Assembly (NCBI GenBank): GCA_032718475.1
Contig: JAUCBJ010006358.1
Coordinates: forward strand, 1-53,479
DNA from: Nemertoderma westbladi
Lineage: Eukaryota; Animalia; Xenacoelomorpha
Length of the DNA stretch: 53,479 bases
Direction of reading: 5' to 3'
Position numbers and translations under genes: made by a program. The notes below the pieces were generated by a model. It was given only the letters and a program-made list of their open reading frames with translations. It had not been told where the DNA came from and did not search any database. Shown here piece by piece: positions 3-39,768 of the stretch. Each line of letters opens with the position of its first letter. Within the stretch, counting starts at the first letter, position 1.

Positions 3-3000
3 AATCTCCGATCGTGGGAGCATGGCTACAGGTTTCTTCAGTAGGAAGTGCGCGGGTGTTAGCGCTTCCAGGGAATCGGGACTCGATGAGACTGGCATAA
101 GCGGTCTCTCGTTGAGATAGGCAGCGATTTCCTCCATTAACGTCCGCAAAAGTTCGTCGGTGAGATACGCGCGGCATGGCACTATAAAGTGAAATGCGGT
201 TTTGACACTTCGAATTAATCTCTCCCAACTTCCTCCCCACCAAGGGGCGTCGGCGGCGTTGAAGGTCCAGCTAGACGCTGTTATCCTTAGCTGGTCGTCC
301 ACCTGTCTTTGGTTCCAGTCCTTCACGTAAGCCTGTATCTCGTTGTTGGCACCTATGAAGTTCGTTCCTTTATCCGATCTCATGGTATTACTCGTCCCGA
401 AGCGAGCGATCTGTCGTCGTAAACTTAAGACGAAGCTGTTGGTAGATAGATCATTCACCATATCGAGATGGATGGCTCTACAAGTCATGCACACGAAGAT
501 GACACACCATCTCTTGACTATAGTCCTCGCACGATATACTTCAATAGGGCCAAATAAATCTACACCAGTATTAGTAAAAGGTGGTTCATAGAAGCTTACT
601 CGTTCCCTAGGTAATTCTGCCTCTCGCTGTGTTAAAGGCCTACTGAATGCTTTCCTACAGGGTATGCAGTTCCTAAGAACTTGGTTCAGAGCTCTACGGG
701 GTTTATCAAAATAATAGCGAGTTCGAATTTCGCTAAGAATTCGTTCTCTACCAGCATGGTAAAGTTTACTGTGAACGTCTACAATCATCTTGATTTGTAC
801 TTCAAGATTTCTAATAAGTATGGGGAATTTGGTGTCAAAGGATAAGGGCGCGTTGGTGAGTCTTCCTCCAACACGTATTAACCCATCTATCATTGTGCTC
901 GAGAATCGATCCCTTAAGCGCATCTGCGGATTTCTCAACAACAGGAAGTACTTTTCGGAATCCTCATAGCATTGCAGGAGTCTCAGTATCTGCTTATTTG
1001 TTTCTTCATGCTCCTGGTGACTAATTTTCTCTTTTAGAAAACGATCAGATATCTTATATTTGGGTAAATTCTTAATAACATGAACTTGTGCAGATGTCAA
1101 TGGAGCGTGATCACTAGTGGTCTTCGTCCTGGAGTAGTGATGATGAAAACATCGTCTTAAATATGTGACGGCTTTACAGAGCCGATTCCAGGAACTGTAA
1201 TGATGCATTGCTCTCTGCAGCATGGGTGAGATTCCTTGCGAGACGTCTGGTATTCCAGATTTCCAATCTTTATCTCTAATTTCCACAACAGACTTATTTG
1301 TGTTGAGGGATTGTGGATCCGAAGCATCATTCCCGGAAGTATGTAATACAGATAGATCGATAGTCGGTTTAAATAACTTCGATTTACTCGCCCGGGTTTT
1401 AGGTTTGACGGTCTCCGCTCCCTTGGCTTGTCTAATCTCTGCCGTAGTAAGGTGAGGAGGCCATTCATCCTCTTCCTTGCTCAGGAAGTCGGGTCCACCC
1501 AACCAATCTGGAGTATCTATCAGTTCCTGTGGAGTTGCTCCCCTGGAGGCGATGTCGGCTGGATTAATCGTACCAGGGCAATGTCTCCATTGATCTATCT
1601 TTGTGCGACTAAGAATAATAGCTACTCGGTTAGTAACAAAAACGCTAAACTGACAGACTTCATTGGTGAGATACTCCAACACGAGTAAAGCGTCGGTCCA
1701 ATAAACCGTTTTCTCCAGTGGGTAGTCGATTTGTTCCGTTACGTTCCGGCCGATGGCTGTAGCGTATAAAGCCGCCTTTAACTCCGCTCGAGGAACCTTT
1801 AACTTGTTGTTAATCAATGCCTTAGAGGTAACCAAGGCGACTTTGATTCCATCCGGAGTTTCGACTCGCAGATATGCTACTATACCTATTCCCATGTCGC
1901 TGGCGTCTCCAAACACATGGAGTTGATAGGAATACGTAGGAAGAACATGGCCAAAATATGCACGGGAAATTATAAAGTTCTCGATGGCAGGTAGAGAATC
2001 TTCCCATTTCATCCATTTCTTTAACAATTCCCCTTTAAGCGGATCGTCCCATGAGTGGTTTTCAAGCCACATTTGTTGTACTAAACTCCGAGCAATCAAT
2101 ATAACTGGGCTAATAAATCCCAATGGGTCGAAATAAGTGCTCAGGATACTTAAACAAATCCGTTTGGTCCGAACTGGATTATCTCGCTGTTTTAACTGAA
2201 AAAACAGGATGTCTCTTTCAGTGTCCCACTTCAAGCCTAGCGTCTTGGTTTCAGGAAGATCGTCCTTTATTAAGTCTAGGTCTTTCGCTCCGCGATCTTC
2301 TACCGGTATGGCTTCCAGAAACTCACGGGAGTTGCTAGTGAATTTCGTCAGTCGAAATCCACCTCTTTTCAAACACTCTACCGTTCCTTTCGCGACAGCT
2401 ATGGCTTCTTCTACTGATGGAAGGGACCTTAAATTGTCGTCCATGTATATATTGCGTTTTATGTTGTCTATCACTTCTTTGGAGAAGGAGTCTCGGTTGT
2501 CATTCGCAGTGGTTCGCACCACGGAGCAGGCGTTGGAAGGGCTTGATATGATCCCAAAAGCCTGGATGGTCATCCAGTACTCTACCGGTTTCTGGTTGAG
2601 GTCTCCTTCAGGCCACCACAGAAATCTCAGGCTATCTCTATCTCTATCCAGCGCCTTGACTTGTAAGAACATTCCTTCTATATCAGAGGCGAACGCGATG
2701 GAATATTGTCTTAATCTTAATAGTATTCCCAACAAAGATTGGAGTAAGTTGGGTCCTGGTAACAACTCGGAATTGAGGGATTGGCCCATATATAGAGCAG
2801 AGCCATCAAATACGACTCGTACTTCATGGGGTTTACCGGGTTTGGGAACGTAATGATGTGTTAAATAATACGTTCTCTCAGTCACTGGTGTTCCTTCCGG
2901 TACTCGCTCCGCGTATCCCTTTGTTATAAATTTCTTCAGCTGAGTTTGGTACATTTCTTTCGCTGAAGCATTAGCTGTAAGGCGTCGATATAATTGAGCG

Positions 3001-6000
3001 ATTCTTTTCTCTGCCAAGGGTCTGTTATTTATAAATCTAGGTTCTCGTTTTCGAAATGGTAGGCCGATTTCATACCTACCTTGGTCCTTTAAAAAACGTG
3101 TAGTTGTTTCCTGGATTTGCTTGGCTCTTTCTTCTTCTATCGATAGAGCCTTATCATATGAATTGGGCTCTACCAGTTCCTGAGTAAAGAATCGTACAGC
3201 TAGTTCGTCCCGAGTTCTAGCGTTGTAGCGCTCTATCTCATCGTTTAGTTCGTCATTGTAAGCGATGGGTTCCGATGGGTGAATCAGTTGACATAGGTTC
3301 ACCTGACTTTTCCAAGTTTGGTTTTCTGTAAGTAGGTCGATTGTGTTCTCTTCATCGAAGAGTTGGTAGATGTCGTCATTATCTGAGGAGTATGGTGTTC
3401 CCTCAGTTAGTTCGTCCACCTCACTGCTCTCCACTTCCCAATCGTGTACTTGGTATGTTTGTTCTTGTGGCATTCTCTCTTCGAGAGTCCTGCGGGAAGG
3501 GCCAGTAAAGTACCAACCTACTCTAGTTCTTACCGCATAGGTTTGCAGTGGCTGCGGTTGAGCAGGCCGTTTCTCTAATGTTTCGAGCGCCTCATGCGCG
3601 TTCTGGCCGATGAGTATTTGCACTCCAGGATAATCTGTCTGGAATCGAGGTATCTTAAGATGTTGGATGCTCTCATCCTCGTCCCAATTATAAAGGTCTG
3701 CTTGAGTAGTAGCGAAGTTCTTTATAGCCACCATTTTTACCGACCTTATACCTTGTGCTCCTAACTTATCCTGGGGGGTGGACAACACACCTACATAGTA
3801 ATCTGCCGTTAAGGTAGATTTCCAAACCTGCATAATTCCTGACATATTCAATTTAGTCCGGAATTTGGGTTGTCCAGCAAAGATATCTTCGGCTAATTCT
3901 TGATCGATGAATGTTCCTGTGCTGCCGGAGTCAAGGAGGGCGTTCACTATGTAACTTTTGTTAAGACCGTGAACTCTTACCTGCACTACAGGAAATTCTC
4001 TGATTCCTACGTTGGAAGTTGGAGCTTTCCAAGATGGTTGTTTGGCAAAAGTAGTTGGGGGAAACTCATTGTTGGTGTCCTTTTCATAAGTAAGTGCTCG
4101 ATACACTGCGGTATTGATTAGATAACAGGATTCGTTGGCGTCGGAGAATTCGTCAGTATAGAATCCTTCCATCTCAGACTCCTGATCAGTGTCATTTACA
4201 TCACTGAATTGGACATGTAGTTCGGGCTCACTTACCTGACTCTGTTTGTCTCGTTCGAACTCACTGTGTAACAAGATGTGATGTTTCGCGCCACACTTTG
4301 CACACTTTATGTCGGAGTAACAGGTTCGCCGTTGGTGTCCTGGTCTGAGGCAATTATAGCATAACCGCTTGTCCCACACAACTGCTCGTCTGTCTACAAG
4401 GGATTTCTTTAGAAATTCAGCACACGCACTCAAACGGTGGGTCCCGTCGCACAGCGCACAGTTAGGTTTTATGTTACTCACTTTACCTTGGGTAACTTGA
4501 TGCACTCTCGTCCTTTGTTCGGGCTTTCTTACGTGCATTCTGTTAGGGGACTGAGGAGGGGTCTTGGCAACCTGTTCTCTCCTATCGTTGGTTCGAGACT
4601 TGTATTTACTTACGTCTTTTGGGGTTTTGCTAACGTAGTAAGATCGGTCAGTGTCTTTTCCGCTGTCCTCTTCTTGAGAAACTTGGCTTTCGCCGTCGTC
4701 AGTGTAACACACCGGTGTTATTCTTCTCCTAGAAGCGGGTTTCTCACTTACCTTATTTTCCGATGTTTTCTCTCTGGACTGCTTGATGAGTTGTAGTTTT
4801 ACCTCACCATCCAAGAAGGACATGAGATCAGCCATGGTAGGACTTCGTCGTTGTTGTTCATTCATGTACAACACTTTCTTGTCCCAGCGTGTACATACTC
4901 CACCCTTTGGTAAAGTAGAGACTACGGCTCCAATAACCATGGAACTCTGATATTCATGAGACTTACCTAACCAATCCAATTGTCTACAGATCTCTTGAAT
5001 CTCATCGGAAAACTCTATAATCCCGCTACTAAGGAAGTGTCGGGGGGCTACTAATTTTGCATACAAATACTTAGCTATGTTATCCTTGTTACCATACCTG
5101 ATGTTTAATGTATCCCATACTTGTCTTAATCCTTCTGGATGTCCAATAAACTTTAACGCCATTAACTTGGGAGGTCCTTCCAAGCACTTGATGAGGAACC
5201 GAAGTTTCTCTCCGTTAGATAGCACAGAGTTCTGTATGCTGTCTTTGTAATATTCGTTGAAAGGTAACCACTTCATCTCATCCCCATTGAATTTGACGAT
5301 CTCTCCCACTTTGACCGCTTGGCGGGCTTCTGTTCTAGCCATCTGACGCGTAAAGCTTTCTTGGGCCATCGTGTTATTTAATATCGAATTATCGGTATAT
5401 AAATTTCTCGGATCATTATCAGGTCTATAGGGAATATCATTAATAACAGGTCTATAATCACCCTTAATAGGGTTTGCTATAGGAGTTTCTACTTCACTAG
5501 CAGTATAGATGCGTGTAGGCTCTACACCTTGCGCATGTAATACTTCAGACCTAACAGGTTGACACAATGTTACAGGGGGTATTGGTATTCCCTTTTGAAT
5601 ATTGACTAATTTGTCGCGTTCTAGCGCGATACTTTGCTGCACTTCTTGCAATTCGGCCCTACTTTCCCTTACTGTTCCCTTAAGTTGATGGACAGTCTCC
5701 TGCATCTGTCCGAGCAGGAGATTCATCCCCCGCCGTCCCTCCTCTACCCACTCGACCGCCGAAGCGGGAGTCGCCAACATAGTAGCGGGCTGACGCGGGA
5801 CGACGGGAGACAAATCTTTGATTTCTCTCTCAGCTTCCAGGACAGGGATATTCTCATGGACTGTTCTACCGGGTACAGGCAGTGTAGTACTGTGTAAAGG
5901 GAATTTAGAGTGAAGCTCTGGAAGTACAGGGGTCTCTAACACAGAAGTGACTTTGGGAACGACAGGCCTAATTATTTCAGGCTCATCAACTATTGTAGGG

Positions 6001-7604
6001 AGTCTTTTGACCTGAACAGTTTGGTCTATGGGTTCCGTACTACCTAAGTCTGTGCTAGCTAGCTGTCTTTTAACAGCTGGGGGCAAATCAGGCAATTTGT
6101 GACGGTGAGATGTTTTTCTACGCCTGCTTAGACGAGATCTATTTCCTCCGCCTTCAGGATCGGTGGTTTCGCTTTCCTCCGATGATGTGTATCCCTGGCG
6201 TTTGGGAGTAGATCGTCTCATCATCTGCATTTGACTAGCAGTTAACTGTTTATTTATGTTGTCTTGCGTCTCTTGCAGATTTTCCAACTCCAGTTGGGTA
6301 GTCTGCTCAGACGCTCTCCGTTCTGCTTCTGCCACTGCCCTTTCCGCCTTTGCTGCTATTCTTTCTGCTTCTACTTCTACCGCCGCTGCTTTTCTTTCTG
6401 CTTCTGCTTCTGCCGTAGCCGCCGCCTTTTGTTCCTCTATCCGTCTTTTCTTTACCTTTTCTTCTTGGACTCTAGCGAGGCGGAGTTTTTCATCAAATTC
6501 TGCTTGGTTAGCAGCTAACATTTCAGCATCGATTGAATCTAACACACGCTGGGTTCCTTCACTATTGGGGGAAAGTCCAGACAGCCGTCTCCTCAATTCT
6601 TCGTCTCCTAGGAATCGCTGATAGTCGGACAGATAAATGTCTATGGCGTCTCTCGTTCGTGGTTTCTCTGAGGTCTCTTCGCCTTCCACCTGAGAAAGGG
6701 TGGCATCGGTTGGTTCTTCATAAGTTAGTCTCTCAGACAGCTGGGATTTCCACTGGTCTGTTTCTTGTACTTGGAGACCTACCCGCTGGAACCAAGTTTT
6801 GACAGCAACCTGCAGTGACGTGTCCTGTCTTCTTTTGGAAGTTTCCTCAAAAGCTGATAGGATTAGTCGAATGCGTAGGGTTCTTTCGCGTACTTGATAT
6901 AGCAGTTCTTCCTGCTCTTGAGGTCCTTGGGGTTGTCGAAACAGTTGTTCTTCTAATTTCTCTAAGGAGCCGAAGAATCCCTGCACATATCCTGCTGCCG
7001 ACCTCTTCCAAACAGCTGGATCCATCGTATCTTTAGCCACTCCCATCCTGTGTATATCTTCCCAAGTAGCCTCGGACAGATCTAACGGGAGTCCGGGTCC
7101 GGGAAAGTTCCATTGTGACTCGACAATAGACATCAATTCTTCCCTGGCGTATCCCGCATAATTATCTTGGGTCGCTCGCTTATTTCTCGCCCAATCTGCT
7201 TGATGTTCCTCCACCGCAATCAATATAGTTGTTAGCACTGCGGCAGGAAGGGTGAGAAGGGGGTCCGAGTAGGCTTTAGCCGTCATCTGCAATCCGCGTT
7301 CGGGGGTCAGTTCGACAGTATCCGAACTACTGGAGCTATCTGATCGCTGGGAACAAGTTTCTTGACTAGGCTGTTGCTGCTGTGGGACAGCTGCTTCCTG
7401 GTTCCGTTTGACTTGGGCCCGAGTGCCGATGATAGACCTACGGTGTTGGATTAGCTTAGGGTCTGATACTACTACTGGAGGGATGACCTTTCTTTCAGTA
7501 GGAGGTGAGCTGAACTCCTTTCTTAATCGCTCCACACTCCTATCTGTGTCACAGATGGTTGTATCGATTAGACTGTCTGACAGGTTTTGCTGAGTGTCAG
7601 ACAT
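3..7604 (-). CDS. Bel/Pao Gag-Pol polyprotein (>2500 aa, open at the window edge)
   Basis: ATG at 7604 (MSDTQQNLSDS). Zinc knuckles CALCDGTH/CYNCLRPGH/CAKCGAKHH ~4460-4270; protease ALLDSGSTGTF ~3940; RT YMDD ~2440; RNaseH LHVFGDAS ~1900; integrase GVDLFGP, SDKGTNFIGA, PWWGGSWERLIRSVK and LTPAHFL. Start codon and LTPAHFL are in the same frame. Absent from the ORF track, consistent with no stop inside the window; I did not check every codon. Confidence 0.9.
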   Translation of the reverse strand, partial: MSDTQQNLSDSLIDTTICDTDRSVERLRKEFSSPPTERKVIPPVVVSDPKLIQHRRSIIGTRAQVKRNQEAAVPQQQQPSQETCSQRSDSSSSSDTVELTPERGLQMTAKAYSDPLLTLPAAVLTTILIAVEEHQADWARNKRATQDNYAGYAREELMSIVESQWNFPGPGLPLDLSEATWEDIHRMGVAKDTMDPAVWKRSAAGYVQGFFGSLEKLEEQLFRQPQGPQEQEELLYQVRERTLRIRLILSAFEETSKRRQDTSLQVAVKTWFQRVGLQVQETDQWKSQLSERLTYEEPTDATLSQVEGEETSEKPRTRDAIDIYLSDYQRFLGDEELRRRLSGLSPNSEGTQRVLDSIDAEMLAANQAEFDEKLRLARVQEEKVKKRRIEEQKAAATAEAEAERKAAAVEVEAERIAAKAERAVAEAERRASEQTTQLELENLQETQDNINKQLTASQMQMMRRSTPKRQGYTSSEESETTDPEGGGNRSRLSRRRKTSHRHKLPDLPPAVKRQLASTDLGSTEPIDQTVQVKRLPTIVDEPEIIRPVVPKVTSVLETPVLPELHSKFPLHSTTLPVPGRTVHENIPVLEAEREIKDLSPVVPRQPATMLATPASAVEWVEEGRRGMNLLLGQMQETVHQLKGTVRESRAELQEVQQSIALERDKLVNIQKGIPIPPVTLCQPVRSEVLHAQGVEPTRIYTASEVETPIANPIKGDYRPVINDIPYRPDNDPRNLYTDNSILNNTMAQESFTRQMARTEARQAVKVGEIVKFNGDEMKWLPFNEYYKDSIQNSVLSNGEKLRFLIKCLEGPPKLMALKFIGHPEGLRQVWDTLNIRYGNKDNIAKYLYAKLVAPRHFLSSGIIEFSDEIQEICRQLDWLGKSHEYQSSMVIGAVVSTLPKGGVCTRWDKKVLYMNEQQRRSPTMADLMSFLDGEVKLQLIKQSREKTSENKVSEKPASRRRITPVCYTDDGESQVSQEEDSGKDTDRSYYVSKTPKDVSKYKSRTNDRREQVAKTPPQSPNRMHVRKPEQRTRVHQVTQGKVSNIKPNCALCDGTHRLSACAEFLKKSLVDRRAVVWDKRLCYNCLRPGHQRRTCYSDIKCAKCGAKHHILLHSEFERDKQSQVSEPELHVQFSDVNDTDQESEMEGFYTDEFSDANESCYLINTAVYRALTYEKDTNNEFPPTTFAKQPSWKAPTSNVGIREFPVVQVRVHGLNKSYIVNALLDSGSTGTFIDQELAEDIFAGQPKFRTKLNMSGIMQVWKSTLTADYYVGVLSTPQDKLGAQGIRSVKMVAIKNFATTQADLYNWDEDESIQHLKIPRFQTDYPGVQILIGQNAHEALETLEKRPAQPQPLQTYAVRTRVGWYFTGPSRRTLEERMPQEQTYQVHDWEVESSEVDELTEGTPYSSDNDDIYQLFDEENTIDLLTENQTWKSQVNLCQLIHPSEPIAYNDELNDEIERYNARTRDELAVRFFTQELVEPNSYDKALSIEEERAKQIQETTTRFLKDQGRYEIGLPFRKREPRFINNRPLAEKRIAQLYRRLTANASAKEMYQTQLKKFITKGYAERVPEGTPVTERTYYLTHHYVPKPGKPHEVRVVFDGSALYMGQSLNSELLPGPNLLQSLLGILLRLRQYSIAFASDIEGMFLQVKALDRDRDSLRFLWWPEGDLNQKPVEYWMTIQAFGIISSPSNACSVVRTTANDNRDSFSKEVIDNIKRNIYMDDNLRSLPSVEEAIAVAKGTVECLKRGGFRLTKFTSNSREFLEAIPVEDRGAKDLDLIKDDLPETKTLGLKWDTERDILFFQLKQRDNPVRTKRICLSILSTYFDPLGFISPVILIARSLVQQMWLENHSWDDPLKGELLKKWMKWEDSLPAIENFIISRAYFGHVLPTYSYQLHVFGDASDMGIGIVAYLRVETPDGIKVALVTSKALINNKLKVPRAELKAALYATAIGRNVTEQIDYPLEKTVYWTDALLVLEYLTNEVCQFSVFVTNRVAIILSRTKIDQWRHCPGTINPADIASRGATPQELIDTPDWLGGPDFLSKEEDEWPPHLTTAEIRQAKGAETVKPKTRASKSKLFKPTIDLSVLHTSGNDASDPQSLNTNKSVVEIRDKDWKSGIPDVSQGISPMLQRAMHHYSSWNRLCKAVTYLRRCFHHHYSRTKTTSDHAPLTSAQVHVIKNLPKYKISDRFLKEKISHQEHEETNKQILRLLQCYEDSEKYFLLLRNPQMRLRDRFSSTMIDGLIRVGGRLTNAPLSFDTKFPILIRNLEVQIKMIVDVHSKLYHAGRERILSEIRTRYYFDKPRRALNQVLRNCIPCRKAFSRPLTQREAELPRERVSFYEPPFTNTGVDLFGPIEVYRARTIVKRWCVIFVCMTCRAIHLDMVNDLSTNSFVLSLRRQIARFGTSNTMRSDKGTNFIGANNEIQAYVKDWNQRQVDDQLRITASSWTFNAADAPWWGGSWERLIRSVKTAFHFIVPCRAYLTDELLRTLMEEIAAYLNERPLMPVSSSPDSLEALTPAHFLLKKPVAMLPRSEI

Positions 7605-8929
7605 GTTTAGCTATACAGTTGAATGCTTACTGCTATAGTTACAGTTAAAGCAAGTCTAGTAATTCAGTATGACCGTTGGCCTAGTACCAGTAATTTATTG
7701 CAGTATATTAGAATACCGGTATGCACTTATAATATATATAAGTATTGTAAACTAGTTTTGTCACAGAGTACCGGTATATAAATTTAGCACAAATATATAT
7801 AAATATATAATAGGCCTATCGTGAATACCAGTATACAGCTTACACTTATAGTATATATAAGTATAATTATGAACTAGAATTAATTACAGAATACCGGTAT
7901 GATTTCAGCTCAAATTTATAGAAATAAATATAATAAGCCTATGGTAAATACCGGTGTGTCAATTATTTTAGAATAATTGATTTTCTGAATATTTTAGGGT
8001 TACTTGGTTACTTTAACTTACTTTGTTACCGTTATTTAAGCAGTAGTCCAACTGATTTTGAGACCTAGTTGTTGTATGGCAGGCCTACTATTTATAAATC
8101 GTTTGAGTTGATTTATAATAGATATATACCCGTTTAAAATATTCGAAATAAATGCTATTATTTCTGGGGGAAGTCACTACACAGAAGCTGTGCGCTCTCA
8201 GTGAAGTGCTACCTATTTGACACTAAAACAGATAATTCTAATTTACCTAAGTTACTTAATACTACAAATTACTTACGATACGGGTGAGATTAATTCTCTA
8301 ATTAAACACAACAAAAATATTACGTACGAATTTTTAGGGTAATTTTACAGGAAGTCTACAAACCAGTCTAACAAAGGGTTAGAATTCGGTTTATTTACAA
8401 CGGACAGGGTACTACGGCATTTGAAATAATAAGTAGTAGTAAATATATTGTACTGTCCAGATAGGAAAAATACCACCGCCTGACGACCTATAACCGTATC
8501 GCTATAGGTACTACGTTATGTATCACGGAGTGTTCCTACCTAGAAGTTAATTACCGCGGACTACCAGATCCAGCGTGCCTATTAACCACTTTACAACACA
8601 AATATACTGCCTACACACTAATTACTTCGGAAAGCACTGTACACTAAACCCTAAATTAGGTACAAGTACTGGTACAACAAATAATCAGTAGTTAAATATA
8701 CTTGAACAGTTAAAAGAACCACGGCATCTGCTGGAGTGACCAGAGCACAAAGTCACCAGTCTTGTCCTACGCCAAGCAGCCCGTGTAGTACCGGGGTTAA
8801 TTTAACTATAACGGTATGTATAACAAACACAATTACTGTAGGAATAAACTTGGGGACATGAATGTTGCGAATAATCGCATAAACTCTGAATAATAAATAA
8901 TACGCTACCCGTACAGAATACTCAAACAA

Positions 8930-9475
8930 AATACAGACCAAACGCTGGCAGACTACCACCAAGCCTAAATAAACTACTGTATGTGCAGATTCCAAAACGG
9001 TTAGTTAGTATGCGTTCTAACACGGTAGTACGACTTATTCTTTAAGAGGGGATTGACCTTACAGCTATTGCTGCCCCAACTTACTAACTGGCACTTTATC
9101 AGACAAACTCTACACAAGCAGCAATCTCTTCAGACCTAATAATAGCTAGACAACAATCCAGCCTACAAAGTATCTGAGTAATAACTATTACGGTATCTGA
9201 ACAGACCACACAAACAAACACAGTCCAAAGCGCTGGCAGAATACTGTCAAGCCTAAATAAACTACAGTATGTGCAGATTCCAAAATTGTTAGTTAGTATG
9301 CGTTCTAACACGGTAGTACGACTTATTCTTTAAGAGGGGATTGACCTTACAGCGATGGCTGCCCCAACTTACTAACTGGCACTCTATCGGACAAACTCTA
9401 CACACGCCGTAATCTCTCCAAACCCAACAACAATCCGACAACAGTCTGGCCTACAATTATCTGAACAATCTGAGC
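8930..9475. repeat. ~288-bp tandem duplication in the element 1 leader
   Basis: The gcgttctaacacggtagtacgac block recurs at ~9012 and ~9300. Confidence 0.85.
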
Positions 9476-9635
9476 AGACTTACACGTCTTCAGCTCAATA
9501 TTAACTTACTAGGAAATAAAACTGACAGAAATAGACCTAAGTAAAATCTCAATAAAAACCAGGCGTCCCCGATTTAATATCGAGACCTACCGGTATACAA
9601 TAATCAAATCGAATAATACTAATGTACTTATACTG

Positions 9636-9765
9636 GAAGTACCGGTTAGGACAGTTGGGCCTACAGGCCTACAGAAGTACCGGTTCTGACAGTTGGACCT
9701 ACGGACCTACAGCAGTACCGGTTCTGGCAGTTGGGCCTACTGACCTACAGAAGTACCGGTTCAGG
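9636..9765. repeat. ~36-bp tandem repeat (3-4 copies) in the element 1 leader
   Basis: agtaccggtt...cagttgggcctac.gacctacag repeated. Confidence 0.8.
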
Positions 9766-9818
9766 TTTACCGGTTGACCGGTACTTTCAACTTTATTGCT
9801 TACTGCAATAAAGTCAAA

Positions 9819-9827
9819 GACTGTTAT
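9819..9827 (-). promoter_or_regulatory. Non-tRNA primer-binding site of element 1 (ATAACAGTC on -)
   Basis: Abuts the LTR end, lacks TGG, and is the exact complement of the LTR-internal site 10582-10590. Confidence 0.7.
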
Positions 9828-11092
9828 TGTACGCGCTTTTGAAGACCTTTAGCAGTTTAACCTGCCAAAATTTATATGTCTTTTGGTTTATCAATATACT
9901 TTAGAAGATGACAAATATTTAATACCAATAAACACAACATTAGCAGAAGCCAGCCTAGTGCGCGTCCATTCACCCGCTGGATATTCCCGGGAGACTGGAT
10001 TCTGAGGGCTTAAATTATTATTGCAGTGAAGCTTACTGTATTGTATTATTCGATTGATCGTTAATAATTAATTTCTGACTAATATTATTTACTTTCGGGA
10101 AATATTAACAGTTCCTTTAGGACGTGGCGCTCTATCTAAATAAACAGAGATATGACTTATACTAATCACAACGGTAAGTCGGTAAGGCTTAAGATTCACG
10201 TATGAGGCGCATTCTTTAGGAAATGCTTAGTTATCAATCACAATCATGCACACTACCGGTAACACACAATACTGCACACTAATTTGCCAACCGTCAATGA
10301 ATTTTATCATATATAAAGAGAACAGCAACGGACCAATGTAGTGCTTATCAAATAGCATTAAATTCACTACAAACCACAACAATATAAGTCGCAATCGCTA
10401 TATATAACCCGTCTCTCTAACCTGTAGTGTATCAAGAAAATTGGGAAATTTGGGTTCTTTATATATGTTCTCCAAATAATATTCAACCAAACACAACAGT
10501 AAATAGCAGTATAATAATGTATGTTGAACAGTAATAACAACAAAGTATTGAATTGTGAATGGATTGATTTGATTTGCATTGATAACAGTCATACGCTCTA
10601 TAATTTAAGCCTACTAATGTTTCTTCTAAAAGTATGAAACGAATTGACTCTAGAGCCGTTGTTCCTGGCCTAGACAGCAATAACAACAAAGTATCCAGAA
10701 AAAACAGTAAGACTGAACACTCTCCTTATGATCGACCGAAAAGCTACACGTCGACAGGAAAAATCGCTCTGATTGGCTCAAGCCAAACAAAGAACCATGC
10801 ATCCAATGGCTGTTTCCATGTCAGCAACCAGCTGTTAGATGTCGTAATATGAATCATCACGGCTAAGCTATGAAAGGTATTTGTCGCATTGCAGGTTTTT
10901 TGCCTTACCATGTCCGCTAAAACACGTATATAGCAGAATGACTTTTATGTCCGTTAAAACACCTGTAACGGTACCTTGCGGGCGAGGGGAATATATATAC
11001 AGTTAGAGAACCTTTTTAGAGTATTCCAGCGCCTGGGGGGAAACTGGATTGCGAAGCAAAAGGGCCAGTTATATCCCACAGAAGCTTTTACA
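9828..11092 (-). repeat. 5' LTR of element 1 (~1265 bp)
   Basis: TGT...ACA termini (tgtacgcgc...gcttttaca) align with the element 2 LTR termini (tgttcgcgc...gcttttaca). The partner LTR is outside the window. Confidence 0.85.
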
Positions 11093-11782
11093 GAAACTAC
11101 CCAGTAATTTTACTTTAATTGTAACGGACGACCTCGTACACCGTAACAGTCAAGTTTTTTTAATAGTATGTCCATGACCTACTATAGATACGACCCGCCA
11201 AGCTGCTGCAAAGCCCCTAAATTTGGAGGGCCAGTTATTTCTCTTAGATAAAACCCCTGAAACAATAGGTCTAGCGCGTCGAAAGTACTTGTCCATAACT
11301 AAAATTATATTCTCTTTCAAATGAGACAAATAAAAAGTTAATAGCTCCAGTAGTTTACGAGATATGAGGAGTTCCTGGCACCCATACCATTTCGGAACCT
11401 TTCGGAATTGATAAAATTACACAAAATACATTACCCTTCAAAGACTTGGGTATAACCATGAAACCATACAATGATTTTTTGATTTGTTGAATTCATTATT
11501 AGTAATCGAAAGTAAGATTAGAAGCAAAATTTTCATTTTTTTATCAATATATACCAAAGGAGCACCAAAAGTGCAAGTAGCACTTTTTTCAAACGTGGTA
11601 AATTGGCCATACAGTTTGGCTACTGAGGTTTTAGAATGTGCTGATTTCATTGGGAAGGTTTATTCCTCTACATCAAACATATCAAAGAGTTGTGTAATAT
11701 AACAGCATAGGCATGTTGTTATATTATTTATTAGTCAGTTATTTGTGCCCCTGGAGCGCGAAAAAAACAAGTAGTGGAAATA

Positions 11783-12440
11783 TGTAAGCGGATTCAATTC
11801 CCTTCATTCTCCACCCTAAAAATGGGACCAGTGGCATTTTACCAATATAGTTGGCGATACGAGATTACCACTAATAATCTCGCCTCATAACCAACTCGGG
11901 GGGGGGGGGGGGCAACACAGGCCCTAAAGCCATAGAGAGAGGTGAGAGGTCAAACCACCTCGGAGAGAGAACCCAGCTAGTTAAGGGTAGCAGCAGGGGG
12001 TAACACTTACAGGGAGTGCCAAAGTGACAATTAGTATATAAGCCAATAGCGGGCAGGGGAGCACGTGGGGAAAGATAGGAAAGCATCCATTGGGTAGCAA
12101 AAGGCCAAAGTAGAGTAGAGGTGAAACCAATATCTATGTGTATCAATCATAGAGTTATCCTGATTACTGGTTTACCGGTCAGTTCATTAATCACAGAGTT
12201 GCAGAACGGCAACAGTTTTAACCATCACTTTATACACTGCTGTTATAATTCTGTATTGCAATTCCTACCATTATTTGTTATACATTCTGTGCTATTATCA
12301 TTGGAACATTAACAACGAGAAACACAAACTCAGTTATTTTCCTGACGGCCTTCGGCCAAAGATACTAGTTCAGCAGCCCAGCAGCAAAGTGACGCGTATA
12401 ACCTAACCCGGTCGGGATCCTTGAACTCGATCCCGTCACA
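11783..12440 (+). repeat. 5' LTR of element 3
   Basis: tgtaagcgga...cccgtcaca; about 15 substitutions plus small indels versus the 3' LTR (counted by eye). Confidence 0.95.
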
Positions 12441-12450
12441 GTTAAAACTA
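12441..12450 (+). promoter_or_regulatory. Non-tRNA primer-binding site of element 3 (GTTAAAACTA)
   Basis: Directly follows the LTR. Complementary to AGTTTTAAC at 12214-12222 and TAGTTTTAAC at 21150-21159. Confidence 0.7.
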
Positions 12451-12525
12451 ACCGAGTCGAAACTAGCCAAGAAGTTAAAACTATCAAGCTTACAACTAAG
12501 ACTGTGACCGCAACACAACACTAAG

Positions 12526-15500
12526 ATGAGCAAACAGTTGCCCCGAGAACCGGAGGGAGAAAGAACGCCGCCACGGACCCCGGACGACACCAACCAAACG
12601 ATCTGAGAGGCTGCGACGAGACGGTACCGGCCAGCCACACCTGATTCGCCAACGAGGGACGATCCAAATGCCCAAGTGGAGGGCGGCCGACAACTACGAG
12701 GAGGGAAAGACAACGACGAGTCGACGCACGACGACGACGGCGGTCGAAGTACCGAAGTCGCCGGCCAGCCACAGGCCGAGGGCGACGGACGGCCTATCGG
12801 AATGGCGACGGTGGGGCGACTGGTACAATGCCGGATGAGGAGGGAAGGTAGAGTCAACGAGGAGGACGTCGGGACGAGTGATCGCCTACGACAGGTGTAC
12901 AACGCCATGAAGAAACTACTAAAAGAGGCTAAGGAGGGGAGAAAGGTAGACCAGCCCAAACTATACCAGAGGCTAGGTGAGTCGAATAAACATTTTCGTT
13001 ACTTAGTCCGTTTTGGACAGGGAGAACTGGCGAGTGAGAGAGCGAGGGGGGTCACCACAGAACTGTTTGAATTGTGGCGGTCCGAGGTAATGCAACCAGA
13101 TGTAGTGTACATAGGGCCTTACCTAGTGGATGCCAGGGGAATTAAGTTAGTGGGATGGGTGGACCCACACAATGGCGAATCCGAGATTAACCCCGAGGAT
13201 TCGGTGTCGTCGGTTAGTAAGAACCCCAGTAAACGGGGGAAAATTAGTAGGACAGAGAGGCGACGGGAGTCCGTCGCGACCGATAAGTCCGCTACATCCT
13301 CCGCGAAAGCAAGAAGGATGTTAGAGATAGATCTGGCGTGTCAACTAGACATTGTGGCGCTGGATCAAAAGGAACTGGAAAGGCAGTTAGATGAGGGAAC
13401 TGCGCTATTAGAGAGGGAGAGAGAATTAGCGAGAGAGTGTAAAGAGAGTGCCGAGAGGGAGGCGAGAAACTTTAGGGAGGGTGAGGCGAGGGAAACGAAC
13501 GAGCGCAAAGAGCGAGAGGCGAGAGAGGCAACGAGGATTGAGAGAGAAACGAACGAGCGCAAAGAGCGTGAGGCAAAGCGGGCGGAGAGGATTGCGAGAG
13601 AGGCAGAGTTAGCCGACCAAAGTATGAGGGAGGATAGGGAGAGAGAGAGGGCGGGCAGACGTATGCGGGATGATATGCATACCCGGCTGAGGGGGTTAAT
13701 GTAATAACAAGCGAAGCAAAAGCGCCGATTAGAACTGGCAAAAATGGGATTATCGGAGACTGAGGCTGGTTCGGGTAGTATTTACGAAGAACCAGAGGTA
13801 ATGGAAACCTTTGTTAATACCCCACTTACAGGTACCAAACGACAGACCCAGGACTGGTGTAATCGTACGGGCAGGGGGGGGGGGGTAATAATAATAATAT
13901 GTTAGAGAGAGTTAATATTAATAGTACCGTAATAGACAACCCTAATCAAACCTTTCTTGCAGGAAATAATGTTTTACCCGGTAACAATAACCTTAATTTA
14001 AATGTGCAAAATAACTAAATAATACAAATAATTCTGAGCAAAAGAATTTAAATAATTTGGGTAACATCAATACGTAAAACAACCCTGAAGAAATTAACCA
14101 AAATAATATCATTAGTAATAGTGTAACGAATCAGGGCGAAATTAATAATGGTGCAATTAATACAAACGTAGGGGGAACAGGTGGGCCGGCCAACGAGAGC
14201 GTGCAAGGCCACGCAGTTGCACAGGGGGAAGCGGGGGTGAGTCAACCCAACGAGAGCCTGCAAGTTAGGTGAACCGCGGCACCCGACGACAGAGATTAGT
14301 AGGGGGATTGCGAATATCCCCAGAACCGTCCAACCGGGCAGAGACAGAGACGTTGGTGCCGTGAGCGGGCAAGCGAGAAGACGTCGAGCTCAGTCGGAAG
14401 ACGGAAGAAGAACAGTGGAGTTTATCCGGGAGGTCGAAGCGAGATCTCACGAGGAGGAACACTGCACTGAAGCAAGACGAAGTCAAGAGAATCGAAGGAG
14501 CGTTGCTACGAGCAACCGGAGAGGAAGGACGGACAGTGAACCGTCGATAGTCGAGATGGAGTTAGAGAGCCGGTGGGGTCATACTCCGGGAGATTGCCGT
14601 CGCCCCGGAGAGACACAACCTGGTGAGATATACTACACACCGGGAGAAGGGTACAGGATGTACTGGTATGAGAATGAAGACAGAAGAGGGGATCGAAGAG
14701 AAACTTTCCGACGGAACGTAGCTGCTGATCGAGAATATGGTAGTCGCAGGGAGGACTTCTTGGAATATTCAAGAAGATTAAACTTCGGTCCGGAAGGACA
14801 CAGGCAGACTGCAGGACATACTGTAGGCCTTACTGCACATACTATAGGACATGCTGGGAGAGATAGTGTAGGCGATAGGGTAGCGTGGACAACAGGATTA
14901 GACCCGGAAATCGCGGCATACATACCGGTAGGTAGGCAAGAAGTGGATAGGCCTATACCGGTATCTGCACACCAGTATGACTATAACATGCAGGGATATA
15001 ATATATACCCAGGGGAGGGGGGAGCTATTGCCGATAGATGCATGGGCCCTAACATGATAACATCAACCCCAGTACCAAATATAACACCGGTGGGGGGGGG
15101 GGGGGGGGGGGCAGGGTGACATTCCCCCATTGCAATATCAGCAATACACTCAACCAAGAACAAAAACCCCAAACCCCTCAGACCCAAATAAGTCATGTGA
15201 CACGGAGATATGGAGGGGACCGTTACCCCCGATGATATATCCTAAACAAGGAAAGTGGACAGGCCCGATGGGCGAACCGTACCCAACAGCAGGGGAGTCT
15301 GCACCACAACCATCGGGCGCGCTAGAAGTACAAGCGATGGGAATGGCAACACTCATCGACGCGCTAGAGACCAGGATCGAGCCACCACCAGTGGAGCCAT
15401 TCAAATTCAATGGTAGTTAGCCGGAGGAATACCTGCAATTCCGGTGTATATACAGTAACGAAATATTAACGAAGAACTTGACGCAGGCGGAGTGCCTTAA

Positions 15501-17412
15501 ATACTTACAAGTTTACACAGGGGGGCCAGCATACGACATTGTTAGGCAGTACCAAGGTATCGAAGGGGGATTCACGACTGCATGGCGGGCCCTAGACAGG
15601 GAATTCGGGCATCCTGCAAAGATCATTCGACAAACCTTAAGGGGAATAACATCAGGCGGACTATAGGATAACCCTGTCAGCATCAAGACTTTCGCAAATA
15701 AAGTCAAAAAGGCGCTGATTGTGCTAAAGACCCTAGATGCACCTTACGAACTCAACGCATCAAATAACATCACTACAATAGAGCAGGCACAACCGATCTG
15801 GCTGAGGAACAAGTGGAGAAAGATCGCCTTCTCCACCCGGGAGAAGAAAGGTGCGGAGCCAGGGCTAGATGAGATGTCGAACTTCCTTAACTATGAGGCG
15901 GAGTTGATTACAGACCCAGTCTACAGCGACGATAGTTTGGGGAGGGTACTGAAAGCTGAATACAACAGGCCTAAACTCGAACATAATCCGGCAGATGCAT
16001 TCCCAAGTGTGAGACAGTCGCTACCGCATGCGGCCCCGCAGGGGACTTGTAGTCCACAAACAGCTGGGAGTAGAGCCACACCGTGGCAGGGGCAGAAGCA
16101 AAACAACAACACAAACAAATACAAACCCAGTACCCCCAGTAGGCCAAGTCCAAATAATAAAAACACTAAACCGCTAGGTATGAATATATGCGCGATACGC
16201 GAAGCGCTGTATAAAGAAGGCTACAATCCAAAATACAAATGCCAATTACACACAAACGCATTCCACTAGGCCATGAATTGCAGGCATTGGCAGGCGTTGC
16301 CTAAACAAGATCAGGTCGCTTACGTGGATATAAATGGACTATGTCGTTGATGCGTGGTAGAAGGACACAGATTCAGAGAGTGTAGAGAAACACCGATAGT
16401 ATACGACGAGACTGATGAGACTGGAGGCCAAACTATGGCTATAAGCACGACGGGAGCAAGGAGGAAGAGGACAGTACTACTGGGGGTAGTACCAGTGAGA
16501 AAAACAGGAGAGGATGGGCTATCGGTCACAACATTAATGTTGGTCGATAGTGGAGCAGCATTCACATTAATGGAGAGTTGGGTGGCCGAAAGGATAGGGT
16601 TATGAACGAGGCCTAGCAAGATGGCGGTAACCACTATCTCCAATAAGGACTAGGTCATGAGAATGAGCATGGGGCGTTGCGAGATATCAGCGATAACACC
16701 AAGGTGCGGCTATGGGGCTACCATCGAACCCATCCAAATAATGGAATCGATTAATATTAACGCCAGGCGACCCACGAAGATCAAGGTCGAGCAATACCGG
16801 TACCTGGATGACATTGATTTTTCCATACCAGAACTGGACGTCCCGAAAGTATCTCTCATAGTCGGCATGGACTGCCCAACAGCCCACGAGAGACTACAGA
16901 CCATTTTCTGCGATGACAGGGAGCGAGACCCAATGGCCATTCTCACGCTATTTGGATGGACGCTCACTGGCCCAATTAAGACGAGGACACCATTTGGTGT
17001 GTCCGGGACATCAGGGTGCGTGCTGTCTGGTATTGTTGAGGACATAGGGAAGAAACCAGAGATGGGCGATGGGGAGGTCCCATGTGAGAAGCGGCCCGGG
17101 GAAGGATACCAGGAGTCGGGGATGGGTATGGATCTGGAACCACGCATAGTGGAGCATGGTGAAAGGATAGAGGATAGTTCCAGAGAAATACCACCGATAG
17201 ATGAGTTAGGAGGGGAAGCAACAGCAAGAGAGTGGGCGGAGGAGAATGGGTTCAATGCAGAGGACCTAGAGGCGATGGGATGGAACAAGGATATTCCTGG
17301 TGAGTATCGTTATGAGGATGGGGTAGAGTGGACGGCGAGATGTCCGGAGGGGTGTCCGGGAGGAGACGCCGGTCCGGTTGAGAGGCATACCGAAAAGGGG
17401 GAGGTCAAATAA
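12526..17412 (+). pseudogene. Degenerate Bel/Pao gag-protease ORF
   Basis: Fragments: coiled-coil (12676-13704), Gag core PFKFNG..EYLQF..ECLKYLQVYTGG..AWRALDREFG, broken knuckle GLCR*CVVEGHRFREC, protease LVDSGAAFT, and SLIVGMD..AILTLFGWTLTGP. Interrupted by roughly ten stops or frameshifts. Confidence 0.85.
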
Positions 17413-17814: not shown

Positions 17815-18295
17815 GTACATAGTACTAAGTAAGGTACATAGCGAGTACCATAGAACCTGTGGGCACTGAGGGCGCCATGTAGTGAGCGGAATTAAAGGGT
17901 ATGTAGGCATGCCATAGTAGTAGGGTACATAGTACCGTAGAAGTTGTGGGCACTGAGGGCGCCACGTAGTGAGTGAAAGTAAAGGGTACATAGTACCATA
18001 GAAGTTGTGGGCACTGAGGGCGCCACGTAAGAAAGTAAAGGGTATGTATGTATACCATAGAAGTAGTAGTAGGGTACATAGTACCGTAGAAGTTGTGGGC
18101 ACTGAGGGCGCCACGTAAGAAAGTAAAGGGTATGCATGTATACCATAGAAGTAGTAGTAGGGTACATAGTACCGTAGAAGTTGTGGGCACTGAGGGCGCC
18201 ACGTAAGGAAGTGAAGGGTATGTACACATACCATAGTAGTAGTAGTAGTACACAGTACCGTAGAACCTGTGGGCACTGAGGACGCCACGTGAGGA
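17815..18295 (+). repeat. Internal tandem repeat, 6 units of ~88 bp (one of 61 bp)
   Basis: gtgggcactgag core at 17859, 17946, 18007, 18095, 18183 and 18269. Confidence 0.9.
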
Positions 18296-18953
18296 ACTAG
18301 GAAGGTAGATAGGAAAATAGCACAGGCAGGGGGGAACATAGATAAAATAAAATAAAACTAAGGAAAATTGGCACTTTGGGGGTGGTAGAGAACAGAACAC
18401 AGGACATTGTGGAGCAGTGGCGATGGGCCAGCTCATGGGGCTCGTCTGCCACAAGCCGATGGACTGGGGCAAGCTCCAAGAGGAGTACGGAGCGGAACTG
18501 GCGAACTCGCTGAAATGGGGAGCAAGGCCAGGGAAGCAAGAGGTATACATATCAGTTTCGAAAGGGAGCGATTAAGATATATCAGAAGAGATATATCTGG
18601 TGTATATCTGGCCGTGGTTATCGGAAGAGAGCCAACGGCGTTTCTGCTATCAAGGATATAAGGGGAGAGGAATACGAGTTCGAAGCCCAGAACCCGGACA
18701 AGCTGAGGTAGGGATCAGAGACCTCAGGAGAGTTTCTGGAAGACGAACTGGGATGGGTGGAAGGATCACCGAAACAGTCGACATTGGGATTACAAGTAAT
18801 GCCCATACCAGGGGGCTCCGAATGCGATTTTGCAAGGAAGAGACCGAGGGAGCAGGAAGGGTGGAAGGTCACTGGTGGAAACCAAGGCAGAAAGGGACAT
18901 AGTGGATCTACCGGGTTACCGGGTTCGGATCCACTCCCAGCGAGTTCGGGGAG

Positions 18954-20000
18954 ATGCCGCCCATTGAGAGAATCGGCCACTCAGACACAGACTGGGTGGG
19001 CGGGAGAGTGGTGATGGCCAGCGGGGCGAGAGCCTTCTGGGACAAACCCAGCAAGCGGGCCTGGGAGCACGAGAAGCCGACGATGGATTTCGTGGCAAGT
19101 ACGATCAGGTTGGGCGAGCATCCAGGAATGGCACCACGGGTAGTGTTCGGGGAGACGATGCCGAGGGTGGAGGAAGACGTCGATATGGGTAGGGACCACA
19201 GCGTCCAGATGTTTGCCTATCAGCGGCTCCATAGACCCAGGAGACCGCATGGGGCAAAGGACGACTTGGTTCGGGACGCGTTGATACACGGCTGTGACTA
19301 CTGTGGGAGACTAACCCACCAGGAAAAGAGCTGTTTGTATCGATTTCAGAAGGGGACGACCTGTCTCTACTGCCGCGAGTCGACCCATAGGATGGGTGCA
19401 TGTCCGAGGCTGCACAACCGATGCTCAAAGTGCAACTTTCGAGGGCACTATGGGCGCCAGTGCGACTGGATGGATGACGAAGAGAAGTTCAAGATCTTCG
19501 AGGAGTGGGCCGACGTCAGTGTCATGACACGGCAGAGGATGAAGGCCCAGGAGTTCTGGTGGGGCTTCTTTAATATCAATCCGGGAGCCCACCAGGAGAT
19601 TATCAAGAGGAGACTGCCATTCACATATCAGGAGGTAGCGACAGCGGCATCATATGGAGGAGTCATCAACACTCAGAGATACTTGGATAGACGGTCGCCA
19701 GAAAATAGGGTCGAGTTCAGGGACTTTCTGGCGGAGCACTTGCCGCGGGCAATGAAAATGATCCTGTGGGACGCTACCAGGGGGATGCAGGAGGGACACT
19801 CGGAGGGACCACCTGCAAAGCGTTACCGGGAGTTGATAACACCAGCGCCCAAGGAACCAATGATGGGGCTTAGCAAGACGGTAATGACAAGAATGAGAAG
19901 TCTCAGGGAGGACAAGCCGGAGAGAAGGAAGCGGCCCAGACAAGACGATGACAGGGGCAAAGAACTTAGATGGTTCCCGAAGACGGGAAGAGCGAACTAG
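18954..20000 (+). CDS. Accessory 348-aa ORF with three CX2CX4HX4C zinc knuckles (may originally have started ~18420)
   Basis: CDYCGRLTHQEKSC, CLYCRESTHRMGAC and CSKCNFRGHYGRQC; basic C-terminus (RRKRPR); lies inside element 3. Confidence 0.7.
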   Translation: MPPIERIGHSDTDWVGGRVVMASGARAFWDKPSKRAWEHEKPTMDFVASTIRLGEHPGMAPRVVFGETMPRVEEDVDMGRDHSVQMFAYQRLHRPRRPHGAKDDLVRDALIHGCDYCGRLTHQEKSCLYRFQKGTTCLYCRESTHRMGACPRLHNRCSKCNFRGHYGRQCDWMDDEEKFKIFEEWADVSVMTRQRMKAQEFWWGFFNINPGAHQEIIKRRLPFTYQEVATAASYGGVINTQRYLDRRSPENRVEFRDFLAEHLPRAMKMILWDATRGMQEGHSEGPPAKRYRELITPAPKEPMMGLSKTVMTRMRSLREDKPERRKRPRQDDDRGKELRWFPKTGRAN

Positions 20001-20715: not shown

Positions 20716-20723
20716 GGGGGGAG
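20716..20723 (+). other. Polypurine tract of element 3
   Basis: GGGGGGAG immediately before the TGT of the 3' LTR. Confidence 0.85.
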
Positions 20724-21377
20724 TGTAAGCGGATTCAATTCCCTTCATTCTCCACCCTGAAAATGGGACCAGTGGCATTTTACCAATATAGTTGGCGATA
20801 CGAGATTACCAATAATAATCTTGCCTCATAACCAACTCGGGGGGGGGGGGGGCACAGGCCCTAAAGCCACAGAGAGAGGTGAGAGGTCAAACCACCTTGG
20901 AGGGAGAACCCAGCTAGTTAAGGCTAGCAGCAGGGGGTAACACTTACAGGGAGTGCCGAAGTGACAATTAGTATATAAGCCAATAGCGGGCAGGGGAGCC
21001 CGTGGGGAAAGATAGGAAAGCATCCATTGGGTAGCAAAAGGCCAAAGTAGAGTAGAGGTGAAACCAATATCTATGTGTATCAATCATATAGTTATCCTGA
21101 TTACTGGTTTACCGGTCAGTTCATTAATCACAGAGTTGCAGACCGGCAATAGTTTTAACCATCACTTTATACACTGCTGTTATAATTCTGTATTGCAATT
21201 CCTACCATTATTTGTTATACATTATGTGCTATTATCATTGGAACATTAACAACGAGAAACACAAACTCAGTTATTTTCCCGACGGCCTTCGGCCAAAGAT
21301 ACTAGTTCAGCAGCCCAGCAGCAAAGTGACGCGTATAACCTAACCCGGTCGGGATCCTTGAACTCGATCCCGTCACA
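20724..21377 (+). repeat. 3' LTR of element 3
   Basis: Direct repeat of 11783-12440, followed by TSD AAATA. Confidence 0.95.
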
Positions 21378-21574
21378 AAATATGATAACGAAAAATCACC
21401 ACGAAAATAAATTGCTTTTATGACCATGTTGTTTTTTTGGGATGCTGATCACGAATATGACATTTGAAAATATCGCACCTTGTTGAATACGGCTTTTTTG
21501 GATACGTGCCAAAGTCCTGATTTTATAACATTTGGGTTTTTTGGGATGCTGATCACGAATATGACACTCATAAA

Positions 21575-22876
21575 AATAAAATATCGAGAGCAAAAATATC
21601 GAGTGTTGAAAAATATCGAGAGTAAAATCATCGAGGGTTGAAAAATATCGAGTGTTGAAAAATATCGAGTGTTGAAAAATATCGAGAGTAAAAATATCGA
21701 GTGTTGAAAAATATAGAGTGTTGAAAAATATCGAGAGTAAAAATATCGAGTGTTGAAAAATATAGTGTTGAAAAATATCGAGAGTAAAAATATCGATAGT
21801 AAAATCATCGAGGGTTGAAAAATATCGAGTGTTGAAAAATATCGAGTGTTGAAAAATATCGAGAGTAAAAAAATCGAGTGTTGAAAAATATCGAGTGTTG
21901 AAAAATATCGAGAGTAAAAATATCGAGTGTTGAAAAATATCGAGTGTTGAAAAATATCGAGTGTTGAAAAATATCGAGAGTAAAAATATCGAGTGTTGAA
22001 AAATATAGAGTGTTGAAAAATATCGAGAGTAAAAATATCGAGTGTTGAAAAATATAGTGTTGAAAAATATCGAGAGTAAAAATATCGATAGTAACAATTT
22101 TTTTAAATAAGGGTTGTATGATAATTTTTTTTACTAAAAATGTTCTAGAACAACAATATTTATCAACATTTGGTAGCTTATAAGGTACGTGTTCTAATAT
22201 AATATTTAACAATATTTATAATATTTATCAAAATTTATAGCTAGCACTTCTTTTATAATATTTATTAAAAAAATAGCAAAAACTAGCTAGTATAATAAAT
22301 CTGGTAAATGGTGTACACCCAAGGTGTATTACATAATGCAATTCATTCACTTGCACTTGCACTGTTGTAACCCATGCACTGCAATATTGTTCCATAATTC
22401 TAAATAAAATGCTCAAGCAAAATGCAATATTTTTATTATCTTATTTTTATCATCTTATTTTTATTATTTGATATTTTTCAACACTCGATATTTTTCAACA
22501 CTCGATATTTTTACTCTCGATATTTTTACTATCGATATTTTTAAACTCAATATTTTTACTCTCGATATTTTTACTCTCGATATTTTTACTCTCGATATTT
22601 TTACTCTCGATATTTTTCCTCTCGATATTTTTCAACACTCGATATTTTTACTCTCGATATTTTTACTCTCGATATTTTTCAACACTCGATATTTTTCAAC
22701 ACTCGATATTTTTACTCTCGATATTTTTCAACACTCAATATTTTTACTCTCGATATTTTTCAACACTCGATATTTTTCAACACTCGTTATTTTTGATATT
22801 TTTCATCTCGCGTTATTTTCAACACTCGTTATTTTTACTCTCGATATTTTTACTCTCGTTATTTTTCACCATTACC
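21575..22876. mobile_element. Foldback/MITE-like structure: inverted arms made of 15/17-bp tandem units
   Basis: AAAAATATCGAG(TGTTG/AGT) array ~21580-22095; reverse-complement array CTCGATATTTTT ~22470-22870; ~375-bp AT-rich spacer. No TSD identified. Confidence 0.65.
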
Positions 22877-33079: not shown

Positions 33080-33395
33080 AAGAAAAGAAGAAAGCGGACT
33101 TAGTCGTAAAGTTATTATGTTGTATACATATCATTGTCGTATTAATTAACTACCATGTAGACTGACTGTTATTAAGTGTTATTTATTATTATTTATTAGT
33201 AATTATCTTATATGATATAAGAGTATTATAATTTACACCTTACTCGGTTTATGATGTTTAATGTTTATTCGTTGGTAACATGTTGTTTGATTACCCTTAA
33301 TTATTTCAGTCATCAAATTTATATAATTAATTTTTGGGATAGCGCTGCATTCTATTTTTCAGATTTTTCGCTGAAAGGATCAGATTAATTATATT

Positions 33396-39700: not shown

Positions 39701-39768
39701 ACATACATAAATATAAAAATAATAAAATAATATAAAATAATAGAGTCACACACCCACTCCATATGTTG

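Follow-up and report, generated by a model that had tools for sequence, protein, structure and literature searches.

According to the ICTV description, the Belpaoviridae carry an 18-nt primer-binding site (PBS) for tRNA-Arg or tRNA-Gly and are primed by a host tRNA, and their replication is poorly understood (PMC8742986). Several other LTR retrotransposons have been described as turning to their own RNA. About 11 nt of the LTR itself are complementary to the PBS in Tf1 and Tf2 of Schizosaccharomyces pombe, in Tj1 of S. japonicus and in the sushi group (PMC7175516, PMC4600332, PMC5341516); in Tf1 the paired segment is the first 11 bases, which RNase H sets free (PMC7175516). Self-priming counts as shown for Tf1, whereas for Tf2, Tj1, Tcn1, the sushi group and the plant TAR copia elements it has been proposed (PMC6317226, PMC4600332, PMC5341516, PMC7175516). 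For Tcn1 (gypsy) and TAR (copia; Houba, Osr-1), the criterion is LTR complementarity of at least 10 nt, located 0–5 bp past the LTR (PMC6317226). A different arrangement is outlined for the ‘Conserved Hairpin Site’ of fungal GalEa copia elements and for bivalve TRIMs, which have an inverted repeat in place of the PBS (PMC5445492, PMC6934838). A literature search, outside which lay subscription journals, Repbase and GyDB, found no report of self-priming in BEL/Pao elements or of splice-made primers, and nothing on priming was found in the available parts of PMC3118150, PMC554778, PMC6238403 and PMC12440569, and general statements only in those of PMC8220671 and PMC3601003.

The window analyzed here, a 53,479-nt stretch of the Nemertoderma westbladi genome, contains three LTR elements, labeled E1, E2 and E3. 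E3 lies on the forward strand and is bounded by a target-site duplication, AAATA, at 11778–11782 and 21378–21382. Comparison of its LTR pair defined a 5′ LTR of 658 bp (11783–12440) and a 3′ LTR of 654 bp (20724–21377), which begin with TG, end with CA and are 96.8% identical; a polypurine tract (20716–20723) adjoins the 3′ LTR. Such LTR ends, a target-site duplication and a polypurine tract are likewise present in E2, while the 3′ end of E1 is located beyond the window. Domain and polyprotein matches place an interrupted gag of the BEL/Pao type (DUF1759) together with a protease at 15217–17325: the DUF1759 match has an E-value of 1.4e-7 in the domain search, an aspartic protease motif is also present, and matches to BEL/Pao polyproteins reach E-values down to 1.6e-31. 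In place of pol there is a 365-codon frame with three CCHC-like knuckles (18903–20000), preceded by an 88-bp tandem array (17983–18290). The Pfam search with this frame returned no match and the Atlas search returned CCHC leads only, all scoring below 0.9. Reverse transcriptase (RT), RNase H and integrase, all present in their BEL-type forms in E1, were not detected inside E3, the matches of 120 BEL/Pao polyproteins being confined to 15217–17325. Because these matches cover gag and protease only, we count E3 as a non-autonomous BEL/Pao derivative. As a whole, E1–E3 share with the Belpaoviridae the LTRs, polypurine tract, DUF1759 gag, Pao peptidase, RT and integrase (not all of them in E3), and differ in that they have no tRNA-type PBS.

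An earlier note on this DNA had presented E3 as a third, independent example of an LTR complementary to its own PBS. The LTR of E3 does indeed have no significant similarity to those of E1 and E2 (best E = 0.98), and its gag-protease region resembles that of E1 only weakly (E = 0.008). On these two grounds we treat E3 as a family separate from E1/E2 within the same superfamily. A separate origin does not follow: since E1, E2 and E3 are all BEL/Pao, E3 represents a third family and not a third origin.

The first base after the E3 5′ LTR is 12441, and the PBS position (12441–12450, forward strand) is occupied by GTTAAAACTA, which lacks TGG. The reverse complement of GTTAAAACTA occurs inside the LTR, over 9 nt at 12214–12222 in the 5′ LTR and over 10 nt at 21150–21159 in the 3′ LTR. 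This segment, also on the forward strand, is the putative self-primer. E3 has in common with Tf1 the layout in which the PBS is complementary to a stretch inside the LTR. When the E3 3′ LTR was dinucleotide-shuffled, seven of 2000 trials gave an offset-0 contiguous match of this length. Against 17 foreign LTRs, the E3 PBS found at most 8 contiguous nt, and the same limit applies to the words of E1, E2 and E3 together; if loose splice junctions are allowed, the A/T-rich E3 PBS reaches 10–11 nt in 3 of the 17. No TGG was found 0–5 nt past the LTR end in any of the three elements (E2 has one only at offset 10), and none of them carries the 18-nt tRNA-Arg/tRNA-Gly site, the TGG form of which occurs in two relatives, L027 and L047. 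The predicted duplex between PBS and site is weak (−7.5 to −8.1 kcal/mol), and in RNA folding predictions for four leaders the pair forms with a probability of 5–7%. With a duplex this weak, pairing would require a chaperone, for example the Gag knuckles. A primer made at a splice junction was considered for E1–E3 and rejected, as splicing improves the match in none of them; in E3 the spliced match is 9 nt vs 10 nt unspliced, and there is no polypyrimidine acceptor. Because splicing does not better their match, we assign E1–E3 to a contiguous form of self-pairing.

Conservation of the pairing was assessed in assembled contigs of the E3 family, drawn from four public runs that represent no more than three samples and aligned over 11700–12700. 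Base 12213, next to the 9-nt site, is T in all covering contigs (9, 12 and 5 in three runs from two samples, the fourth run giving no cover) and in the corresponding position of the 3′ LTR, while the neighboring positions 12206, 12210 and 12211 vary among the contigs. Because all the covering contigs and the 3′ LTR carry T at 12213, we take the tenth pairing base to be the family state. Among the 40 of 338 substitutions listed, none falls in the site or in the U5 stem discussed below. The PBS side has a sharp boundary. Of the 15 joints listed, eight depart from the window sequence where the 10-mer ends, at 12449/12450, and rejoin it at 12523–12590; the contigs are concordant up to 12449/12450 and divergent beyond. 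Summed contig depth, not to be read as copy number, is in the thousands on either flank and drops to ~40–70 at 12448–12481, a segment common to few family contigs. As the joints sit at 12449/12450 and the depth drops from 12448, we put the shared PBS of the family at 9–10 nt. The complementarity between PBS and LTR that the earlier note had described is thus borne out for both LTRs, and family-wide with the tenth base included; all the positions given in the note are correct.

Other parts of that description fared differently. The note had read CAGTT at 12213–12217 as resembling the arthropod TCAGT initiator. That reading is rejected as formulated: the CAGTT context is private to the 5′ LTR copy, the 3′ LTR and covering contigs having T at 12213, and full TCAGTT words occur only elsewhere, at 12179 and 12330. 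Moreover, the AG close to the site is predicted to act as a splice acceptor in seven relatives. The arthropod argument is baseless in any case because the tree, with weak support, places the host gene of the window outside the arthropods. TATATAA was correctly located at 12035; it occupies 12035–12041 (forward strand), ~178 nt upstream of the pairing site, and the E3 LTR has no other TATA-like word. None of E1–E3 has a TATA-like word 25–30 nt upstream of the site (E3 at −178, E2 at −12), and one near −30 was found in 1 of 14 elements. A transcription start ~30 nt past TATATAA (near 12065), which the note had named as a refutation, would go against a strict Tf1 geometry but would be compatible with self-priming, since splice-type relatives pair upstream of their intron.

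A second PBS copy does begin at 12474, 33 nt downstream, as had been claimed, and it is absent from most family contigs. It is part of a short degenerate repeat (12474–12484, forward strand), with AACTA occurring four times in 12441–12500. As a conserved part of the element it is rejected, being located in a variable leader segment common to few family contigs, and it is likely a by-product of local duplication. The hairpin proposed to close U5 is real as a stem, CGGGATC/GATCCCG at 12413–12419/12429–12435. Folding predicts it with high probability as a 7-bp stem with a 9-nt loop (12413–12435, forward strand), which is not unusual for the composition, as 20 of 200 shuffles fold equally well (z = −1.41, not significant by itself). 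Family indels cluster in the loop: 5 of the 12 listed (out of 158) fall at 12420–12428. U5 hairpins are predicted in all of E1–E3 (z from −1.4 to −1.8), and the relatives described below have no consistent terminal hairpin. Priming of Tf1 requires an auxiliary U5 stem-loop beside the PBS. A role of the E3 hairpin as a helper of priming is possible, with weak support.

The two other elements lie on the reverse strand. E1 is typified by an uninterrupted BEL/Pao gag-pol frame (DUF1759, Peptidase_A17, Integrase_H2C2; 3–7610) that runs off the window, and its RT-RNase H is ~35–42% identical to the nearest marine-invertebrate BEL/Pao relatives. As the 3′ LTR of E1 is outside the window, its LTR end (9828) was set by alignment with E2. 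The PBS position, ATAACAGTC at 9819–9827, is complementary over 9 nt to an LTR-internal site at 10582–10590. E2 is an E1 relative from which most of pol is deleted. Directly past its 5′ LTR (47627–46384) stands TTAAAGGATAT (46373–46383), complementary over 11 nt to a site at 47149–47159. Offset-0 matches as long were obtained in 1 of 2000 dinucleotide shuffles of the LTR for E2 and in 27 of 2000 for E1. E1 and E2 share ~77% of U5 and the block that immediately precedes the site, yet the PBS and the site differ together. The 5′ edge of the site is at a fixed place relative to the shared upstream block, which would fit a transcription start there.

Some further details of the E1/E2 pair may be mentioned. 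In E2 (47159–47095, reverse strand) the 11-nt site directly follows the block shared with E1, and a look-alike of the E1 site is found ~45 nt further on, which suggests that the E2 site was replaced through an insertion. A common U5 hairpin is predicted ~18 nt before the LTR end (46395–46420 in E2 and 9840–9870 in E1, reverse strand) and is kept despite two one-sided changes. Because the LTRs of E2 (35508–47627, reverse strand) are 99.8% identical even though pol is largely deleted, we regard E2 as recently inserted and as presumably mobilised in trans. E2 is nested in another repeat, since 35036–35496 resembles 47628–48083. Both elements have leaders of ~2.1–2.2 kb (7610–9827 in E1 and 44244–46383 in E2, reverse strand), with 288-bp and 123-bp tandem duplications.

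To place these elements among their relatives, E1 was aligned with 33 homologues, and 79 BEL/Pao loci comprising 61 families were fetched from metagenome contigs; a scan of viral contigs for relatives found none. The LTR end could be fixed by the divergence of its two copies in 16 loci, the other 63 of the 79 being without two end copies. One of the 16 (L062) was left out because the repeat, 3.9 kb long, does not qualify as an LTR; in three others (L015, L041 and L073) the LTR end was adjusted by eye. In this anchored set of 15 families, 11 show pairing of 10–15 nt with their own LTR. A contiguous match of 9–12 nt located 0–4 nt past the LTR is found in five, and seven pair over 11–15 nt across a predicted intron with a strong donor and acceptor; six of these seven have at most 7 contiguous nt at the offsets concerned. 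The overall tally is four contiguous, seven spliced, two with a TGG tRNA-type site (L027 and L047) and two with neither (L073 and L077). All counted matches are purely Watson–Crick, free of G–U pairs, and begin 0–4 nt past the LTR end. Pairing of at least 11 nt between a PBS and its own LTR occurs in 11 of 18 elements vs 5 of 306 cross pairs. Among 44 further loci with unanchored ends, pairing of at least 11 nt was seen in eight vs none in either the reversed-only or the complement-only control, a partly non-blind test in that three of the eight had already been met; a further two are closely related to anchored families, and one (L048) is chance-like.

In the RT-RNase H tree a single clade (support 0.99) holds all the self-pairing loci, and L027 and L047 fall outside it. 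E1 forms a long branch outside both groups, a placement that is not firm. The best scores of the E3 gag-protease region, weak as they are, go to loci of the self-pairing clade. The introns predicted in the LTRs of the splice-type families (L004, L013, L015, L022, L037, L058 and L078) are 76–186 nt long and have pyrimidine-rich acceptors. By eye, the spacer between LTR end and primer is an inverted copy of the spacer between polypurine tract and LTR in L044, L058, L013, L078 and L047, the last of which is tRNA-type; in E2, E3, L037 and L072 the primer site follows the LTR directly.

Against the described systems, E3 resembles Tf1 in outline, and by its proteins we do not class it as a Tf1/sushi member. 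What is shared with Tf1 and the sushi group is the absence of a tRNA PBS and a PBS complementary to the LTR itself. However, Tf1 and the sushi group are Ty3/gypsy elements (Metaviridae), whereas the proteins of E1–E3 are of BEL/Pao and not of chromovirus type. The Tf1 segment constitutes the first bases of the RNA, whereas the E3 site is known from DNA as LTR-internal only. Unlike Tf1, E3 has no RT or RNase H and would need a helper, and, again unlike Tf1, in 7 of the 15 anchored families the best match spans a predicted intron. The threshold used for Tcn1 and TAR is reached by the E3 3′ LTR (10 nt) and by E2 (11 nt), but not by E1 or the E3 5′ LTR (9 nt each); those elements belong to other superfamilies and other hosts, and a splice-junction form is absent from the parts of their accounts available to us. 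GalEa elements and TRIMs resemble E1–E3 in having an inverted repeat and no PBS. Nevertheless, both of their arms are downstream of the LTR, 12–41 nt apart, whereas in E1–E3 one arm is ~230–780 nt inside the LTR.

Our reading, based on the missing TGG, the offset-0 matches in E1, E2 and E3 (equaled in 27, 1 and 7 of 2000 shuffles, respectively) and the similar layout in most relatives examined, is that E3 likely primes reverse transcription with its own RNA and not with a tRNA, the primer probably being cut from its own leader. The leader would fold back so that the PBS meets the LTR-internal site, probably assisted by the Gag zinc knuckles. By analogy with Tf1, the RNase H of a helper element's RT would then cut immediately 3′ of the paired segment, leaving a 3′-OH that would prime minus-strand strong-stop DNA across U5, E3 borrowing its RT in trans. 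The transcript would not have to begin with the site, because seven relatives are best matched across a predicted intron. E3 may accordingly be seen as the contiguous variant of a mechanism more widespread in BEL/Pao. A more general version, that a large clade of marine-invertebrate BEL/Pao elements abandoned tRNA priming for their own RNA, often with a primer spliced across an LTR intron, and that E1–E3 represent a contiguous form whose primer is excised from within the transcript, possibly following intron loss, seems to us evenly poised between true and false; the origin of E1–E3 by loss of an LTR intron is in itself a guess.

It might be argued that the pairing is a long-range RNA helix serving packaging, dimerisation or translation control, while another primer is used. 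Covariation demonstrates pairing, not priming, and the region is flanked by predicted U5 hairpins in all three elements. Yet the match lies 0–4 nt past the LTR end, exactly where L027 and L047 carry TGG, and it replaces TGG and is not added to it; the lack of G–U pairs in the counted matches and the mirrored spacers, which place the cDNA end at the site, also argue against a purely structural helix, and we consider this explanation unlikely. Somewhat less credible still is the same site being used with a primer contributed by the 3′ LTR copy, or by the other RNA packaged in the particle. The two copies are indistinguishable by DNA, the 3′ copy of E3 is one base better, and no TATA is found at the expected distance. 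On the other hand, splice-type relatives keep their LTR intron: a 3′ RNA copy that templates U3 would have to retain it, and only the 5′ copy could form the junction. In addition, a cut in the 3′ copy would take away R.

Priming by half a tRNA or some other small RNA of the host, with the LTR match a chance or relic feature, has a precedent in half-tRNA priming in copia lineages (PMC6317226), and the E3 word is A/T-rich; we regard it as very improbable, as it leaves unexplained why matches of at least 11 nt concern the element's own LTR (11 of 18 own vs 5 of 306 cross pairs). The most implausible of these alternatives is that the E3 match, taken singly, is a coincidence. Its 5′ LTR has only 9 nt, the word is A/T-rich and the predicted pairing is low, but the shuffles (7 of 2000), the family conservation that stops at the tenth base and the recurrence of the layout in E1 and E2 all speak against chance.

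If self-priming holds for E3 and its relatives, it would enter a third superfamily of LTR elements, as one more independent switch away from tRNA. The missing annotatable PBS in such elements would be accounted for, and a rule for placing LTR ends would be at hand. In the splice-junction relatives, reverse transcription would depend for its start on splicing by the host. For every element a single, exactly defined primer end is predicted.

Outside the three elements, the window contains a 7.5-kb satellite (22877–30438) made of ~118 copies of a 64-bp unit, with arrays of 15–17-bp units ahead of it (21578–22866). An intronless 4-aminobutyrate aminotransferase frame at 31568–33079 (forward strand), ~50–56% identical to proteins of many animal phyla, is possibly a retrocopy. 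Finally, inverted repeats of ~400 bp with shorter ones nested occupy 50633–52580, and their ATAAC-rich arrays are also found at 33386–33964; the arrangement is MITE- or foldback-like.
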